Shown here one piece after another: positions 1 to 7,981 of a DNA stretch of 54,049 nucleotides. Each line of letters opens with the position of its first letter. Position 1 is the first letter of the stretch. The translations under genes were made by a program, and so were the position numbers. The DNA lies in the IMG/VR virus record IMGVR_UViG_3300010048_000014, positions 1-54,049 of that record, one strand, 5' to 3'. The notes under the pieces are model-generated. The model saw only the letters and a program-made list of their open reading frames with translations. It made no database searches and had not been told where the DNA came from. The DNA is from a virus (taxonomy: Duplodnaviria > Caudoviricetes).

Positions 1-175
1 ACGCCCAAGGGACTAGGGTTCCACCGATCCAGCGCACCGCAGGGTCAGGCGATAAGGGTAACAGCCCGCGCCGCGCCTCACATGTGCCTGTAACCGGCCC
101 AGTAAGCCGCTTTGAAAGTCAAAGGCGGGCGACGGCAATATCCAATTCCCAAACAGTAAATCATTTTTATTTACA

Positions 176-208
176 GCCTCGCTAAGTCGCGGGGCGTTTG
201 TCAATTTG
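176..208 (+). promoter_or_regulatory. Repeated leader element, copy 1: GC hairpin (loop TAAGTC) followed by GTTTGTCAATTTG
   Basis: GCCTCGC-TAAGTC-GCGGGGC then GTTTGTCAATTTG; same loop and tail as 1929-1965. Confidence 0.6.
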
Positions 209-252
209 ACCCGCGTGCAGCGGACCTGCACTGCTTACAAGGTAGGTTAATC

Positions 253-1917
253 ATGTCTGATCTAACAAACACCACAGCCGACGCTGTGAACGTATCGGCG
301 CAAGTCGCACTTACCACTAAGTCACAACGCGTCATGGCCGACATCAAAGCGGCGTTGCAAGCGCGCATTGCCTTGCTTTGGGTCGTGACTAAAGAGGAAA
401 GCCGCGCCGAGCGTTACATCGCGCAAGCGGCAAACGCTGCGGCGTATCAGTGCCGCACGTGGGATATTGCGCAGGGACCATGCGAGTTGAGCGGCAAGCC
501 GTTGCAACTCACGCAATCAAATGACCCTAGCGAAATGCTAGGCGTCATCTTGAACAAGTCGCGGCAGACAATGCGTGACGGCGACAGCGACCGTAACGTG
601 TGGATCATGCGTGATCTGCCCGTGTGGCTCGAAGGCATGCCGGGCGCTAGCGTGCTCCGGGCGGTGCGAAATATCGCACTGGCACGGCCGCGCATGGCGC
701 AAAACACTGCGCAGGCTATCGTTGTGATCTCGCCGTCTGGCAAAGTGCCAGACGAGTTAAGTGACCATGCAACGGTTATTGATTGGCCGTTGCCGGACAA
801 AATCGAAATTGCCGCGATCCTCGACGCGGCGATTGCGACCAACGTCAACAAGCTTCCTGAACTTGCGAACCTGACAAACGGCAAACGTGATGCCGCTGTT
901 GACGCGGCGTTAGGTTTGTCCGAGGCGGACACGCAAAACGCCTATTCCACATCGCTGGTGAAGTGTCGGACCATTGATGCGTTGCTAGTGGCGAGCGAGA
1001 AAAAGCGCGTCATTAGTAAAGAACGAATAATGGAATGGTACGACCCAATTGCAGGCGGTCTCGACAGCGTAGGCGGTTTGGAAAACCTAAAGGCGTGGTT
1101 GTTGACCATTGCTGATGCATGGTCCGAAAAGGCGCGCCGATACGGTTTGAAACCGCGTAAAGGCTGCATGCTTGTCGGCGTTCCGGGTTGCGGCAAATCC
1201 CTAACGGCGAAAGCAATCGCGACGGCGTTAGGTATCCCGCTTATCCGGCTTGATCTGGGCGCGCTCAAAAGCAAGTTTGTCGGCGAGAGCGAACAGAACA
1301 TTCGCAAAGCGTTCCGCGTTATCGAAGCCATCGGCCGTTGCGTCGTTTGGTTAGACGAAGTGGAAAAAGCGCTTGCGGGCGCGACAGACGGGAGTGCGGA
1401 TGGTGGCGTATCAACCGACGCACTTGGTTCAGTGCTGACTTGGATGCAAGAGCGGCAAGGCGAAGCGTTCGTGATCGCCACTGCTAACGACGTGTCGAAA
1501 CTGCCTCCAGAACTAATGCGCAAGGGCCGGTTTGACGAAGTGTTTTTCGTGGACCTGCCGACAGTCTCAGAGCGTAAGTCAATCTTGCAAGCTTCACTGC
1601 GCACTAACGGGCGCGCGGCAGACGGTCTTGATTTGGACCGCGTTGCTAGCGCGTGCTTTCGTGATGCCGCGCAATACGGCTTTACGGGCAGCGAAGTTGC
1701 GGAGCTTATCCCGACGGCAATGTATGCCGCATACGCCGACAACGCGCGCGCGATCACCACAGCTGACTTGCTGGCGGCTGCGGAACAAACCGTCCCGCTC
1801 GCAAAAACTGCAAGTGACAAAATCGCAGGCTTGCGGCAATGGGCAATCGGCAAGGCGCGGCTAGCAACAGCGGCCGAGCAAGTAACAGCGCAGCAATTAA
1901 GCGGCGTTGAAATTTAA
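253..1917 (+). CDS. AAA+ ATPase, Ycf46-like (degenerate N-terminal AAA-like domain plus intact C-terminal AAA domain)
   Basis: Walker A GVPGCGKS, pore loop SKFVGESE, Walker B VVWLDEVEK, sensor-1 ATAN, SRH LPPELMRKGRFDEVFFVDLP. Confidence 0.9.
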   Translation: MSDLTNTTADAVNVSAQVALTTKSQRVMADIKAALQARIALLWVVTKEESRAERYIAQAANAAAYQCRTWDIAQGPCELSGKPLQLTQSNDPSEMLGVILNKSRQTMRDGDSDRNVWIMRDLPVWLEGMPGASVLRAVRNIALARPRMAQNTAQAIVVISPSGKVPDELSDHATVIDWPLPDKIEIAAILDAAIATNVNKLPELANLTNGKRDAAVDAALGLSEADTQNAYSTSLVKCRTIDALLVASEKKRVISKERIMEWYDPIAGGLDSVGGLENLKAWLLTIADAWSEKARRYGLKPRKGCMLVGVPGCGKSLTAKAIATALGIPLIRLDLGALKSKFVGESEQNIRKAFRVIEAIGRCVVWLDEVEKALAGATDGSADGGVSTDALGSVLTWMQERQGEAFVIATANDVSKLPPELMRKGRFDEVFFVDLPTVSERKSILQASLRTNGRAADGLDLDRVASACFRDAAQYGFTGSEVAELIPTAMYAAYADNARAITTADLLAAAEQTVPLAKTASDKIAGLRQWAIGKARLATAAEQVTAQQLSGVEI

Positions 1918-1928
1918 CAAATAACTTT

Positions 1929-2000
1929 GCCGCGCTCTAAGTCGGGCGCGGTGTTTGTCAATTTGCAATGGTGCAAGCTGACTTAAACCGAAAGGGGTTT
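1929..2000 (+). promoter_or_regulatory. Repeated leader element, copy 2 (hairpin, GTTTGTCAATTTG, RBS GAAAGGGGTTT)
   Basis: GCCGCGCTC-TAAGTC-GGGCGCGGT then GTTTGTCAATTTG; RBS before ATG 2004. Confidence 0.6.
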
Positions 2001-2003
2001 AAC

Positions 2004-2816
2004 ATGCGCGTTTCTACAATTCGACCCGGAACGCTGGTCACGCTAAAAACTTCGATCAGTGGCAATGTTCGCTACTTCAAAACAAATGTGGAAGCCGAAC
2101 ATTTGCTAGAGAACGGACAGACTAGCGAAGCGGAGTGGAATACTCGCCGCATCACGCTAGACAAAGCGGAACATGAGCTTGCGGTAAAAACCCGGAGCCG
2201 GTGCCGCTCGCTTATCACTGGCTGTTGCACCGTGGGCAACTTCCTGATTTGCCCCGTGGCAAATCGCGACAATCTGGAAAAGGCTATCGCGGAGGCGGAG
2301 GCATTAGCGCGCGATTTTAACGCTAAGGCAAACGTAACGCGGATTAGCGTTTACCCGGCTATGACGGAAGTTGCGCCCGACGACTTGCGTTGGATGCAAC
2401 TTATTAACAGCGAAGTCCGCGACTTGTTGGATGCAATGGCGCAAGGCGTCAAAAACCTTGACCCGGATGCAATCCGCAAAGCTGCAAACACTGCGCAGTC
2501 GGTCGGCAAATCTTTGACGCCGGAAGCGCAGGAACGCTTGCAAGCTTCGATTGATGCCGTGCGCAAACAGGCGCGCGCCATTACCAAGGCGGGCGAAACT
2601 GCGGCCGTTGAAATTGATGCGACCGTGTTCAAACAACTCGAAGAAAGTCGCACCGCGTTTCTGGAAATTGGCGACGACGTGCAAGCGCCAGTCGCCGCGC
2701 CGGAGGCGGAAGGCCGGGGCGTTGACTTTGACGCCGTGCAAGTCGGCCGCGACTTAGCCGAAACAATGAAACTAGAAGACGTGCAAGCCGCGATTGATCG
2801 AGGCATTGATCTGTAA
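2004..2816 (+). CDS. Hypothetical, largely alpha-helical protein; probable partner of the AAA+ ATPase
   Basis: Long ORF; start reassigned to ATG 2004 behind AAAGGGGTTT RBS. Confidence 0.8.
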   Translation: MRVSTIRPGTLVTLKTSISGNVRYFKTNVEAEHLLENGQTSEAEWNTRRITLDKAEHELAVKTRSRCRSLITGCCTVGNFLICPVANRDNLEKAIAEAEALARDFNAKANVTRISVYPAMTEVAPDDLRWMQLINSEVRDLLDAMAQGVKNLDPDAIRKAANTAQSVGKSLTPEAQERLQASIDAVRKQARAITKAGETAAVEIDATVFKQLEESRTAFLEIGDDVQAPVAAPEAEGRGVDFDAVQVGRDLAETMKLEDVQAAIDRGIDL

Positions 2817-2821
2817 ACTAT

Positions 2822-2892
2822 TGCGGCGGGACGTTTGCTCCGCCGCATTTGTCACTTTGCAACGTGACGGTAACGCAACAGGAAAGGGGTTT
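2822..2892 (+). promoter_or_regulatory. Repeated leader element, copy 3
   Basis: TGCGGCGG/CCGCCGCA stem, TTTGTCACTTTG, ACGCAAC, GAAAGGGGTTT. Confidence 0.6.
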
Positions 2893-2895
2893 ACC

Positions 2896-3240
2896 ATGCC
2901 ATGCAATACCAGATTAAAACCGCGCCAGACAATTCAGGAACGCGCGGCGGAAGTACGAAAAGCAGTGGACGCGCTAGCGCTAAAACTGCTTAAGCGACAA
3001 GTGCGCCCCGTTGTCGATAAGACCACGGGAGCGATCACGTTCGCGGGCTGGAGTGAAACGGATCGCGACGGCATCACTGACGCGTGCGCGTATCGGCGTA
3101 TCAAGACGCAAGGCAATGCACTGGTGCAAGCTGAGATCGCACGCGCCGAGGCAATGGCGGGTAGGCCAGTCAACACCAAGGCGCTAGCGCAGGGCGTTCA
3201 CTCACATGACGGGGGAGTGTCATGGCACCACGGGCATTAA
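2896..3240 (+). CDS. Hypothetical protein with His-rich C-terminus (HSHDGGVSWHHGH)
   Basis: ATG 2896 behind GAAAGGGGTTT RBS. Confidence 0.75.
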   Translation: MPCNTRLKPRQTIQERAAEVRKAVDALALKLLKRQVRPVVDKTTGAITFAGWSETDRDGITDACAYRRIKTQGNALVQAEIARAEAMAGRPVNTKALAQGVHSHDGGVSWHHGH

Positions 3241-3363
3241 ACGCGCTTTGGCAATGGGAGGAAACCAACCAACCATTGGAAGCAAAGCGCCAAATCGCCG
3301 CGCGACTTGCGGCTGTTGTCCTGACCTACCGTTATCGGAAAGTAGAAAATTGACTGCACTAAG

Positions 3364-3424
3364 CGGGGCGCATGCGCCCCGTCATAGTGTTGTCAACCGA
3401 CAGCACGCAACCGAAAGGGGTTTT
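3364..3424 (+). promoter_or_regulatory. Repeated leader element, variant copy 4
   Basis: Palindrome CGGGGCGCATGCGCCCCG, TTGTCAA, CAGCACGCAAC, GAAAGGGGTTTT. Confidence 0.5.
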
Positions 3425-3427
3425 GCT

Positions 3428-3700
3428 ATGCGAATAGGAACAACGGCAAACGAGTGGCAAATAACTTTTAATGGCAAGTCCTATAAAATAACCCGGCGTC
3501 ATTATCCCGCGCTCTACAAAGCGGCGACCGTGTACGGTCCCGCCGTTAGCACGCCGCCAAAAGACTACTGGCGCGTAGCTTCCGACGGTCGCACACATTG
3601 GCGCGACTTAGATGAAACAGGCGTAACCTATCAAAAAGTTTTGAAAGCGTTCAAAGATCACATCGGCGAGACAATGCTCTCCGATTGCATTGGCGCTTAA
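3428..3700 (+). CDS. Hypothetical protein
   Basis: ATG 3428 (MRIGTTANEW) behind GAAAGGGG RBS. Confidence 0.7.
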   Translation: MRIGTTANEWQITFNGKSYKITRRHYPALYKAATVYGPAVSTPPKDYWRVASDGRTHWRDLDETGVTYQKVLKAFKDHIGETMLSDCIGA

Positions 3701-3706
3701 CTTATT

Positions 3707-3780
3707 GCCGCGCGTTTCGACGCGCGGCGTTTGTCACTTTGTGACCGTGACGCAATCATGCGGCACGATTGAAAGAGGTT
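3707..3780 (+). promoter_or_regulatory. Repeated leader element, copy 5
   Basis: GCCGCGCGT-TTCG-ACGCGCGGC then GTTTGTCACTTTG; GAAAGAGGTT RBS. Confidence 0.6.
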
Positions 3781-3783
3781 GCT

Positions 3784-3861
3784 ATGGACTATCAGCCTTT
3801 GATTGACGCGCTAGCAATGTGCCTTTGCATTGCTTTCGCTGTCGGGATCGGTGCGCCATGA
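3784..3861 (+). CDS. 25-aa hydrophobic peptide (MDYQPLIDALAMCLCIAFAVGIGAP)
   Basis: Hand-translated; good RBS; ATGA overlap with next gene. Confidence 0.55.
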   Translation: MDYQPLIDALAMCLCIAFAVGIGAP

Positions 3862-4073
3862 AAAAGATCATCTTGGAAAAGCGCCGCGACTATTGGGGCG
3901 CTTGGCTATACGGCATTGATGGCATGCCGGAAGATGTAGAGTTGCCGTTGCCGTGGTCGCCGCAAGCGTATCTGATGACAGTTGCGCGCGATATGCGGAA
4001 ACGGTTTCCGGGCGCGCGCCTGCTTTACCGCGACACCTTGGGGCAACTTTCGCAAGTGGCGGAAACGCCATGA
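3858..4073 (+). CDS. Hypothetical protein
   Basis: ATGA overlaps at both ends. Confidence 0.65.
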   Translation: MKKIILEKRRDYWGAWLYGIDGMPEDVELPLPWSPQAYLMTVARDMRKRFPGARLLYRDTLGQLSQVAETP

Positions 4074-4438
4074 AACCGGCCGCGCTAATCCCGCGCGACA
4101 TCGCGCAACGCAAGCCGCCTCACGGGGCGGCTTGCAACCGTTGCGGGGTCTGTTGCCTCGTAACCCTATGCGAGATCGGCCGCGCCGTTCACGGGCGCGA
4201 CCGTGGCCCTTGCCCGTCACTGCGCTGGGAGGGCGCGGAGAGTAGCTGCGCCCTTACCCGGCTAGGCCCGCCGCACCTTAACGCGGCGGCGCTTACCTTG
4301 GTACGCGCGGGCGAGGGCTGTGACTGCCGCATAAACGGGGAACCGACTAACACGGCATTCCACGCCTACCAAGACAACCGCGACAAGGAACGCGCCGCCG
4401 AGATCAAAGCCGCGCGCAAGCTTTGGGGATTGGATTGA
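4070..4438 (+). CDS. CxxCxxCC cysteine-cluster protein (YkgJ-like, putative Fe-S or Zn binding)
   Basis: CNRCGVCC...C...CPSL...C motif; ATGA overlap. Confidence 0.65.
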   Translation: MKPAALIPRDIAQRKPPHGAACNRCGVCCLVTLCEIGRAVHGRDRGPCPSLRWEGAESSCALTRLGPPHLNAAALTLVRAGEGCDCRINGEPTNTAFHAYQDNRDKERAAEIKAARKLWGLD

Positions 4439-4540
4439 TCCGCTACGGGACAGGACGGCGCAAGCCGCCCTGCCCCGCGTCCGCCTCGCCTGATGGCGCG
4501 CGGGGCGCGCAATGGACGGCGGCAAATCCCGCGCCATAAA

Positions 4541-4638
4541 CTAAACGAGATTTCTAACCCAAACGTAATTTCTAACGTAAAACCTAATGCAAACATAAAA
4601 TCTAAACGAAAAACCTAACCCAAACGTAAAACCTAACG
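4541..4638. repeat. AT-rich, G-poor array of CTAA-anchored imperfect repeats
   Basis: CTAA units spaced 13/18/12/18/13/18 nt; 4541-4577 recurs nearly intact at 4602-4638. Confidence 0.75.
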
Positions 4639-4642
4639 CTAT

Positions 4643-4673
4643 TTGCCTTTCCAGGCGTAGTTTGATATACTAC
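4643..4673 (+). promoter_or_regulatory. Sigma70-type promoter overlapped by palindrome GTAGT-N7-ACTAC
   Basis: TTGCCT (4643-4648), 17 bp, TATACT (4666-4671). Confidence 0.6.
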
Positions 4674-4678
4674 ATGAC

Positions 4679-4765
4679 ATGGAAATCTTTCTACTGATTG
4701 TCATTGCTTATCTGGTGCTATGCGTCGCAACACAGCTAGCCGTTATTTCTGACCGCAATCGCTAG
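4679..4765 (+). CDS. 28-aa single-TM peptide, probably leaderless
   Basis: MEIFLLIVIAYLVLCVATQLAVISDRNR; ATG 7 nt after the -10 box. Confidence 0.5.
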   Translation: MEIFLLIVIAYLVLCVATQLAVISDRNR

Positions 4766-7022: not shown

Positions 7023-7242
7023 CCGCTAGCTCTGCCCCCTTGCCTACCGTGCAGCGGACAGCCCACACCGCCGACCCCTCATGGAATAGGGCAGCAAGGG
7101 CATAGGGGCTTGCGCCTATTTGTTTTAATTGACGGCAGGCAGCAAACAGCGGGCGCTGGGAACGCCCCTGTACGGGGCTTCCCGCCACCTTGTAATCGAA
7201 GACGCCCTTGCGGGAGGGCTTAATAATAACCCGGTATTCCAT
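7015..7242 (-). CDS. Hypothetical protein
   Basis: ATG 7242 coupled to the GcrA stop; overlaps RusA start. Confidence 0.6.
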   Translation of the reverse strand: MEYRVIIKPSRKGVFDYKVAGSPVQGRSQRPLFAACRQLKQIGASPYALAALFHEGSAVWAVRCTVGKGAELADE

Positions 7243-7763
7243 CACACCGCCCTCTTGATGACGAAGCCTCTGCCGCTGGGATAGCGCAAACCGTGGTAGG
7301 CAACTTTCTTGTGGATAACGCAATACGGGGAGAGATCATCCGAACAGGGGGCACCACAGTAGCCGAAGTCGGCAGTCTGGGGGTCGCCAATCGGCCATTT
7401 GCACATCCCCGGCCCCAGATCGAGGATGGTGACCTTGCCCCCCTCCCGGTAGCTAGTCTTGGCAGCTACGGAAGGTTCCGGCATCGGGATGTCCTTGACC
7501 GTCACCGGGTTCCCATCGGATCGCTTCTGGCCCAAGATTGCCTTAATTGACTTCCGCCCCACCGTACCCCGGTTCTCGCCATGGGTCATCGGGGCAGGGT
7601 TCTTGGGACGCGGTACCCGCATCAGCCCCAATCGCCAGACAAGGCCCATGATAGAACGCCGGGACTTGCCCAGCTTGTTCCCAATCCAGAGCGCCGAATA
7701 GCCCTGCATCCAATAGTCGCGCACCACTTTCTTGTTCTCATCAGTCCATAAGTCGCCGCGCAT
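7242..7763 (-). CDS. gcrA: GcrA cell-cycle regulator homolog
   Basis: N-terminal WTDE..W.QGYSA..IG..LG.SR..IMG.V.RLGL HTH; C-terminal CKWPIGDP..FGYCG...PYC..H; start uncertain (7763 or 7790). Confidence 0.9.
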   Translation of the reverse strand: MRGDLWTDENKKVVRDYWMQGYSALWIGNKLGKSRRSIMGLVWRLGLMRVPRPKNPAPMTHGENRGTVGRKSIKAILGQKRSDGNPVTVKDIPMPEPSVAAKTSYREGGKVTILDLGPGMCKWPIGDPQTADFGYCGAPCSDDLSPYCVIHKKVAYHGLRYPSGRGFVIKRAV

Positions 7764-7780
7764 CAGTAAGACTTTCTCAT

Positions 7781-7981
7781 TTACTTGCATTTGGGACAAT
7801 CCATAGAGCACCCGGTGCTCTGCCACCAATGAAGGATCAACTGGACCGCCGTTTCAGTTGGTGGACGCTGCTTGCGATGCCTCAACGGGATTACAGCCAT
7901 CCGCCGTCGGTGTCCGTTAGGACACTCAAACGTGGCTTTGTTGTTGCCGTGGTAGGCGATAACTTTGTGCCTGCACATCAT
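7781..7981 (-). CDS. Small putative Zn-binding protein
   Basis: CPNGH and CPKC motifs; first gene of leftward operon. Confidence 0.5.
   Translation of the reverse strand: MMCRHKVIAYHGNNKATFECPNGHRRRMAVIPLRHRKQRPPTETAVQLILHWWQSTGCSMDCPKCK

Follow-up and report, generated by a model that had tools for sequence, protein, structure and literature searches.

Three adjacent genes, referred to here as A, B and C, open the viral contig IMGVR_UViG_3300010048_000014 (Duplodnaviria; Caudoviricetes) and form a cassette of a putative AAA+ ATPase and two partner proteins. Unfoldases of the AAA+ class that work with dedicated adaptors are central to protein quality control, and those encoded by phages are almost unstudied. 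The window analysed is the whole IMG/VR record, which is linear, 54,049 bases long and estimated to be 84% complete. The three open reading frames (ORFs) that an earlier reading of the sequence (hereafter the original prediction) had placed at 253-3240 are present as described, and are the first three plus-strand genes of the window:

253-1917, + strand: gene A, 554 amino acids (aa); probable degenerate AAA-like N-terminal half (residues 1-262), predicted active classical-clade AAA module (approximately residues 266-520) and C-terminal tail
2004-2816, + strand: gene B, 270 aa; predicted alpha/beta N-terminal domain, four-helix bundle and disordered acidic tail; PHROG 11021; without a Pfam family
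2896-3240, + strand: gene C, 114 aa; opens with MPC and carries an Asp-box-like HSHDGGxxW followed by a His-rich end; PHROG 11784; without a Pfam family

Each of the three proteins matches a PHROG family without an assigned function (E 7e-163 for A, 7.5e-40 for B and 1.3e-28 for C), and A, B and C therefore represent real genes and not chance ORFs. The longest ORF of B begins at 1968. Its true start is taken to be the ATG at 2004, for a product of 270 aa, because the homologues begin there (M-x-x-S-T-[IL]-R-P-G) and a ribosome-binding site (RBS), GAAAGGGG, just precedes it. The start of C, the ATG at 2896, likewise follows from the starts of its homologues, and the 114-aa product terminates in HSHDGGVSWHHGH, in agreement with the His-rich end noted originally. 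The ATPase had also been said to lead the early module of the virus, which holds by position only, A being the first gene of a linear contig for which the completeness is an estimate.

Conserved synteny and distribution of the cassette

The conservation of the gene neighbourhood was examined in two samples of viral loci. Among 80 loci collected with C as the seed, all three genes are present in 73, in the order A-B-C (62 loci) or B-C-A (11 loci); three loci belonging to one lineage (L028, L029 and L032) retain A and C without B, and four carry C only, two of these being cut at a contig end. The second sample, regarded here as the unbiased test, consisted of the best 80 of 397 viral loci encoding relatives of A, 71 of which offer enough room to judge the neighbourhood. 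The orders found are A-B-C in 57, B-C-A in 10, C-A-B in 2 and A with C and without B in 2, and in the remainder the contig ends in or just after B (8 loci) or right after A (1 locus). All three genes are thus present in 69 of the 71 judgeable loci, and C is missing from none that has room for it. The observed gene orders are cyclic permutations of A-B-C only, and the backbones around the cassette are otherwise unrelated; antisense artefacts aside, clustering of the 1535 ORFs of the C-seeded loci revealed no fourth gene in more than nine loci. The three genes thus make up one conserved unit.

Among GenBank phages, B and C were found only in 34 records of Corndog-like Mycobacterium phages. All 34 hold A, B and C in this order, with identities to the proteins of the window of 47-48%, 34% and 51%, respectively. 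With these records and the A-seeded loci, the expectation that the three genes travel together, on which the original prediction had been made to depend, agrees with what is found next to the homologues of the ATPase. In Corndog, an extra 86-aa gene lies between B and C, and ParB-like and Ku-like genes lie downstream of the cassette. The GenBank labels are 'AAA-ATPase' and hypothetical proteins, the PHROGs are without function, and full-text literature searches (supplements excluded) yielded no description or function of the cassette.

All three products are expressed in mycobacteriophage infection: peptides of Corndog gp96 are reported from infected cells, and those of Catdawg gp97, gp95 and gp93 from lysate, in the sections available of one study (PMC4351075). 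By their coordinates, Catdawg gp97, gp95 and gp93 are the homologues of A, B and C, respectively. The same sections describe Cluster O phages as lacking an integrase and yielding no stable lysogens (PMC4351075). Only six contigs bearing C were found among 185,579 species genomes, all of them from metagenome-assembled genomes, which indicates that the cassette is not a prophage feature and that the phages carrying it are not resident in genomes.

Reduced forms of the cassette occur as well. Besides the lineage that has lost B, one record (L048) carries an intact C and, just upstream, a 118-aa ORF corresponding to the end of the last helix of B together with both of its tail motifs; no A is present in this record, which is estimated to be 61% complete. 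In L028 of the B-less lineage, C is followed directly by an ORF of 433 aa (2863-4164, + strand) with an N-terminal P-loop (GANGQGKTS) and coiled-coil-like stretches, which by eye looks like a protein of the SMC/RecF/SbcC kind.

In the window, the neighbours of the cassette include RusA, a GcrA-family regulator, a YqaJ/RecE-like exonuclease and RecT. The gene for the GcrA-family cell-cycle regulator (7242-7829, - strand) matches PF07750 above the cut-off (E 4.4e-25). GcrA is an alphaproteobacterial family, and its presence in the window probably points to an alphaproteobacterial host.

Gene A encodes a putative two-tier AAA+ ATPase

Residues 306-434 of A match the Pfam AAA family (PF00004) with an E-value of 1.4e-29 and 103.6 bits, against a gathering cut-off of 21.2, and the solved structures closest to it are the D2 rings of Cdc48/p97 (E 7.5e-52 across residues 270-497). 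The motifs of the module were read from the sequence and from alignments:

1177-1200, + strand: Walker A of A, GVPGCGKS (G309-S316), with G309, G312, G314 and K315 invariant in the alignments

It is followed by the pore loop KFVG (residues 341-344) with GESE after it, the Walker B motif VVWLDEVE (D368, E369), and a second region of homology that comprises the sensor-1 residue N412 and the arginines R423 and R426 of RKGRFD. The lid, GFTGSE, has no sensor-2 Arg. Walker A and B, the pore loop, sensor-1 and the RKGRFD arginines are invariant columns among 30 homologues. The assignment of functions to these motifs follows established knowledge of the classical clade, and by this reading A possesses the full motif set of a substrate-threading classical AAA+ protein. 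The Pfam match and the invariant motifs bear out the description of A as a classical-clade AAA+ with intact Walker A/B, pore loop and arginine finger.

The N-terminal half of A had been described as a degenerate AAA-like domain. It yields no Pfam match and no PDB relative in a sequence-profile search. An alignment of 69 family members was therefore split and the two halves were compared as profiles, in which residues 139-230 align to the part of the AAA half between the sensor-1 strand and the lid, both included (P 8.9e-5 over 84 columns, probability 60%), and the P-loop and the arginine fingers are without counterpart in residues 1-262. This profile-profile match lends moderate support to a degenerate AAA-like domain in the N-terminal half, and A resembles a two-tier ATPase of which a single tier is active.

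Comparison with known systems places A near the Cdc48/p97/VAT and FtsH-type unfoldases, with which it has in common the Pfam AAA domain, Walker A/B, the pore loop, the sensor-1 Asn and the arginines. The two-tier layout and, by analogy, the use of cofactors with short peptide motifs are further likenesses. In contrast to Cdc48/p97, A would have a single active tier, with no P-loop in the N-terminal tier, and it lacks the double-psi-barrel N-domain; it also has neither a protease domain nor a membrane anchor, and its tail is not an HbYX motif. None of the NCBIfam family cut-offs is reached (94.5 against 802.65 bits for CDC48, TIGR01243; 89.9 against 600 bits for FtsH), and membership of A in the Cdc48/p97 family was rejected on this score and on the missing P-loop of its N-terminal half.

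The AAA module also matches IetA/IteA of the IetAS anti-phage system (E 1.9e-24 in PADLOC and 1.5e-20 in NCBIfam). Identification of A as IetA was rejected, as the score for NF042959 is 73.7 bits against a cut-off of 510 and the match is limited to the generic AAA module. The cassette further differs from IetAS in having no IetS-like partner, B and C being without a PADLOC match, and in being carried by lytic phages and not by host defence islands.

A C-terminal motif shared by A and B

The C-termini of A and B carry a common short motif. In A, the pattern [RK]-x-hydrophobic-[DE]-hydrophobic is found within the last nine residues of 55 of the 64 distinct C-termini, usually as R-A-L-D-L, and a looser form, hydrophobic-[DE]-hydrophobic, is found in 61 of them. 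In B, the motif occurs after the last helix in one or two copies, typically as G-R-A-[LIV]-D-[LF], in 59 of the 67 distinct tails, and 48 of the 67 terminate in hydrophobic-[DE]-hydrophobic; longer forms of B carry additional copies. The background is low, the motif being present in 4 of 1152 other ORFs from the same loci and in none of 72 C ends. The copies in the window are as follows:

1897-1914, + strand: A tail, LSGVEI, a variant that fits the looser form of the motif only
2712-2729, + strand: B tail, first copy, GRGVDF (residues 237-242), with R238 nearly invariant and D241 invariant
2796-2813, + strand: B tail, second copy, DRGIDL (residues 265-270), at the extreme C-terminus

The display of the same terminal peptide by A and B implies a common receptor. 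In the B-less lineage, A ends in LRALDL. C is favoured as the receptor because both reduced forms, the lineage with A and C and the record L048, keep C beside a protein bearing the motif. C is thus the preferred candidate for reading the tails, the N-terminal tier of A being the alternative.

Gene B

The family of B is large, with at least 1000 clusters at 50% identity. In the AlphaFold2 model, built from 30 sequences (predicted local distance difference test score, pLDDT, 82.5), residues 9-123 form an alpha/beta domain and residues 128-222 a four-helix bundle, followed by a disordered tail. The expected length of 270 aa was recovered; the expected helical character was recovered in part, as the model predicts an N-terminal alpha/beta domain ahead of the bundle.

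Neither B nor C belongs to a family in Pfam, NCBIfam or PADLOC; their models gave no Foldseek match among solved structures at an E-value of 0.001, and their sequence profiles found nothing in the PDB. A profile search for B covered 1.84 billion representatives, and the best 150 matches, those listed, are all close relatives. The wide VIA-align search returned generic helical bundles only (best Z 9.6, residues 131-222), a comparison in which the N-terminal domain was barely tested, and tblastn of B against plasmids gave no match.

Two similarities had been proposed for the partners by the original prediction and bear on B. For DUF3150, a mostly viral cluster of this family comes closest in structure among those of the ESM Atlas, with template modelling (TM) scores of 0.50/0.47 over residues 1-226, a match flagged as "under the bar". 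In a Foldseek search of BFVD, a DUF3150 protein ranks sixth (E 2.6e-3, TM 0.36), within a group of full-length unnamed phage proteins of approximately 270-340 aa (E 1.6e-4 to 8e-3), and one of 30 homologues of B matches PF11348 (E 5.7e-4). Against this, B of the window does not match PF11348 even at an E-value of 10 (Pfam cut-off 24.9 bits), and none of 149 diverse family members (B of the window and 148 representatives) does so at 0.01. Kinship with DUF3150, a family of no known function that is scarcely mentioned in the literature searched, is thus a weak structural lead. As a source of examples for a profile comparison, PF11348 was found neither in three genomes holding the cassette nor in 301 genomes of one class, in a scan where the control genomes were also silent. 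The second similarity, to PspA/ESCRT-III, was not found: there is no Pfam match for B, 29 aligned homologues or the 148 representatives, and none among the listed fold matches. AlphaFold2 predicts the helical part of B to be a compact bundle and not a long hairpin.

Long forms of B arise by tail extension, by internal duplication or as a chimera with DUF4942 and a methyltransferase-like part, and none is fused to C. The chimera, P0292 (670 aa), consists of approximately the first 200 residues of a B homologue, DUF4942 (E 3.3e-39) and a methyltransferase-like end with NPPF, and may be real or an artefact of gene calling.

Gene C

C is the most conserved of the three cassette proteins. Its family comprises 518 clusters at 90% identity, nearly all of 112-115 aa, and residues M1, C3, C64, H102, H104, D105, G106, G107 and W110 are invariant in 30 diverse members. 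The invariance of two Cys and two His residues (C3, C64, H102 and H104) suggests a candidate Cys2His2 metal site, and two of the four candidate ligands fall within a conserved hairpin:

3199-3225, + strand: Asp-box-like hairpin of C, HSHDGGVSW (residues 102-110)

Weak BNR/Asp-box matches in 25 of the 30 members (best E 0.0064) are the sole recurrent family signal. The AlphaFold2 model (pLDDT 86.2) is that of a small alpha/beta protein; the best Z in the wide VIA-align search is 4.2, and the ESM Atlas contains neither a model of C nor a match to it. A protein containing C and longer than 200 aa, as would be expected of a fusion, was not found, which is weak evidence. One homologue of C (P0134) bears the name 'restriction endonuclease Mrr' in its source, and no search result supports this name.

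A sister cassette and the link to Ycf46 and Ycf35

Distant relatives of A, with 29-30% identity over the full length, are present in Rhizobium phage RHph_I4, Aeromonas phage HJ05 and Agrobacterium phage JP1. The relationship extends to the N-terminal half, in which R51, W70, G75, P166, P181, E185 and G221 are invariant between A and these sister ATPases. In the sister loci the ATPase is followed by a 208-243-aa protein without a family, then by DUF1257 (Ycf35) and DUF2997. In the Pfam scan, all three phages have DUF2997 above the cut-off, and RHph_I4 and HJ05 have DUF1257 as well; the 167-aa protein of JP1 gives no DUF1257 match and is counted as such through its alignment with the other two only. 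The order was found in 13 of 13 loci (the three phages and 10 viral loci, two of which are overlapping stretches of one contig). The earlier statement that ATPases of this clade travel with small conserved partners is thus true of the sister cassette, with DUF1257 and DUF2997, the window having a different set. In two of the sister phages a lysis module lies upstream of the cassette.

The two cassettes are alike in placing after the ATPase, with its common N-terminal domain, a mid-sized protein without a family and then small proteins, of which the sister cassette has two and the window cassette a single one, C. The sister ATPase and second protein share an arginine-rich C-terminal tail motif that is related to the motif of A and B. 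DUF1257 opens with M-S-H-x-T and C with M-P-C-x-T, and in DUF2997, as in C, a hairpin is followed by a conserved Cys. These parallels in the opening, the hairpin-Cys and the tail are suggestive but unproven.

In a profile comparison of C with DUF2997, represented by 12 phage sequences, an 18-column match (P 0.0046) covers the beta-hairpin before the conserved Cys, with no Pfam match. The comparison with the phage DUF1257 profile gives P 0.13, that is, no similarity, and DUF1257 (PF06868) has no match anywhere in the window, nor in C and 29 aligned homologues at an E-value of 1. The suggestion that the partners resemble DUF1257 accordingly found no support in the Pfam scans or in the profile comparison. 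B and the sister second protein show no similarity as profiles, and neither B nor C gave a match to the partners in RHph_I4 when profiles built from single sequences were compared.

The label 'Ycf46' for A derives, alongside the original prediction, from the generic name 'SpoVK/Ycf46/Vps4' of a COG, as used in the accessible part of one article (PMC12870095); no Ycf46 model in the libraries searched matches A. A cyanobacterial cluster of DUF2997, Ycf35 and fed7 is listed in a review consulted in part (PMC4284462), and ycf35 and ycf46 are described, in an excerpt of another study, as lost together in red-algal plastids (PMC5940233). In the portions of the literature covered by the searches, Ycf46, Ycf35 and DUF2997, which are conserved in cyanobacteria and plastids, appear only as hypothetical or putative proteins. 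A-B-C appears to be an AAA+ unfoldase with adaptors, sister to an uncharacterised cassette of the Ycf46 type.

Intergenic hairpin elements

A common layout was recognised when five intergenic regions were aligned (window 165-3742), and is present in all the gaps before the genes at 253, 2004, 2896, 3431 and approximately 3797. It consists of a GC-rich hairpin (-14 to -28 kcal/mol), immediately followed by GTTTGTCA(A/C)TTTG and, approximately 30-40 nucleotides on, by GAAAGGGGTTT and the ATG. The elements flanking the cassette genes are as follows:

165-252, + strand: region upstream of A, with a GC-rich hairpin at approximately 176-195 (-14.3 kcal/mol, z -2.8)
196-208, + strand: motif GTTTGTCAATTTG upstream of A, an exact match, with an RBS-like AAGGTAGG before the ATG
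1929-1965, + strand: hairpin of the A-B gap (-19.3 kcal/mol, z -3.8), then GTTTGTCAATTTG (1953-1965)
2822-2859, + strand: hairpin of the B-C gap (-17.7 kcal/mol, z -2.9), then ATTTGTCACTTTG (2847-2859)

Sites of the form GTTTGTCA(A/C)TTTG lie at 196, 1953, 2847 and 3729, with a degenerate copy in the gap before 3431, and no other site with 0 or 1 mismatch is found in the 54 kb. The closest relative of the window, L003, carries copies of the motif at 1957-1968 and 2865-2876. In appearance, the element combines a terminator or attenuator with a promoter or operator, and it punctuates the first 4 kb. A scan of 1-4700 for sigma-70 promoters and terminators gave counts equal to the shuffled expectation.

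Probable mechanism and alternative explanations

Taken together, A-B-C is probably a self-contained protein-remodelling cassette of non-temperate phages, in which a ring unfoldase and two dedicated cofactors function in lytic growth. A ring ATPase of the Cdc48/FtsH type is the most likely assembly of A. In it, the inactive N-terminal AAA-like tier would serve as a scaffold and docking surface, and a protein substrate would be threaded through the KFVG pore loops of the one active tier. B may be an adaptor or regulator, its disordered tail displaying one to three copies of the motif that also ends A, so that A and B would compete for, or be bridged by, one receptor. C, a small conserved protein with a probable Cys2His2 metal site, would be the preferred receptor, and the cassette would act on its target during lytic growth. 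Physical binding among A, B and C is what we infer from these features.

Several points weigh against this explanation. Binding among the three proteins, the ATPase activity and the substrate are argued from features of the proteins and not from direct data, and since no relative of known function could be detected for B or C, their roles as cofactors are drawn by analogy alone. B is absent from two loci with room for it and is thus dispensable in at least one lineage, and one record (L048), though incomplete, may be without A. The tail of A in the window, ending in SGVEI, is a weak form of the motif, and the four candidate ligands of C are proposed from their invariance. The hairpin elements between the genes may mean that the three do not form one simple operon.

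It was also considered that the three genes are merely co-inherited, with separate functions and with another meaning for the tail motif, such as a common signal for degradation or localisation that a host factor recognises. Such independence would accord with the provision of every gene with its own hairpin-plus-motif element and RBS, and with the existence of lineages without B. The synteny in 69 of 71 loci, restricted to cyclic orders on backbones that otherwise share nothing, is hard to explain without a functional link, and the sister cassette has the same architecture in all its 13 loci; co-inheritance alone is accordingly regarded as very improbable. If the genes do work together, the ring may be directed by B and C to a host protein (a defence, nucleoid or replication factor) that it extracts or destroys early in infection. 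Host takeover or counter-defence of this kind is a special case of the ring unfoldase favoured above and not contrary to it, and is held only tentatively, as a possibility that falls short of likely. The carriage of the cassette by non-temperate phages, its position in the window and in L003 approximately 250 bases from the contig end amid small unknown genes, and its movement among unrelated backbones in phages of Mycobacterium, probably of alphaproteobacteria (from the GcrA gene) and of other hosts are what would be expected of it. B and C, however, match nothing in PADLOC; the presence of the genes in all 34 Corndog-like records marks a core-like set, unlike most counter-defence genes, which are variable accessories; and the retention of the motif and the partners across actinobacterial and proteobacterial hosts argues against a host-specific target.

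The retention of the motif across host phyla could be accounted for by a universal receptor, as in the proposal that the ring assists DNA metabolism by remodelling or unloading a protein-DNA complex (a sliding clamp, a recombinase filament or a ParB/Ku-type complex), with the tail motif as a docking peptide for a universally conserved replication protein. The tail core x-L-D-L is similar to the central part of QL[SD]LF, the consensus of bacterial clamp-binding peptides, and genes of DNA metabolism are found near the cassette (ParB-like and Ku-like in Corndog; RusA, the YqaJ/RecE-like exonuclease and RecT in the window; the SMC/RecF-like P-loop ORF in L028). Corndog is moreover noted, in the sections available, as unusual in having both a beta clamp and this ATPase (PMC4351075). 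The flanking genes are, however, not conserved between loci, clamp-binding peptides have a glutamine and a final aromatic residue that are missing from the motif, and no clamp or polymerase was found among the 53 ORFs of the window (out of 72 called) that were scanned with PHROGs or Pfam. In addition, the tails of the sister cassette are basic and not acidic, a variation between the two cassette types that is more in keeping with a receptor within the cassette than with a universal one of the host. A role in DNA metabolism is thus considered unlikely, and the self-contained remodelling cassette remains the preferred explanation.

A bolder version of the preferred explanation would make the cassette a portable phage segregase with a peptide code, in which C, as a zinc protein, reads the tails of A and B and clamps B on the ring, so that a universally conserved bacterial protein is extracted during lytic growth; C would at the same time be a condensed counterpart of DUF1257 (Ycf35) and DUF2997. 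This version is speculative and, as a whole, doubtful. If C does prove to be such a condensed counterpart, the mycobacteriophages would provide the first experimental handle on the long-unexplained Ycf46/Ycf35 of cyanobacteria and plastids.

New in the present analysis are the synteny count of the A-seeded loci, the tail motif shared by A and B, the sister cassette with DUF1257 and DUF2997, the candidate metal ligands of C and the probable degenerate N-terminal tier of A. The cassette is widespread, as the number of clusters and loci of its three families indicates, and crosses host phyla as an intact module; both of its partner proteins are without a curated family or a solved fold, and the sister cassette ties the question to Ycf46, Ycf35 and DUF2997. 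Since Corndog-like phages are amenable to engineering and have Mycobacterium smegmatis as a host, the function of the cassette is directly testable, with the tail motif and the Cys2His2 residues of C as precise targets for mutation.

Other features near the cassette

A Cys-rich ORF of 161 aa (CNRCGVCC...; 3953-4438, + strand), without a Pfam family, lies downstream of the cassette in the window. It recurs close to the cassette genes in 8 of the 80 loci seeded on C and may be an occasional accessory. The sequence stops approximately 250 bases upstream of A both in the window (1-252) and in L003 (1-243), the A protein of which is 93% identical, and the contig end at this position could be a true genome end and not an assembly break.

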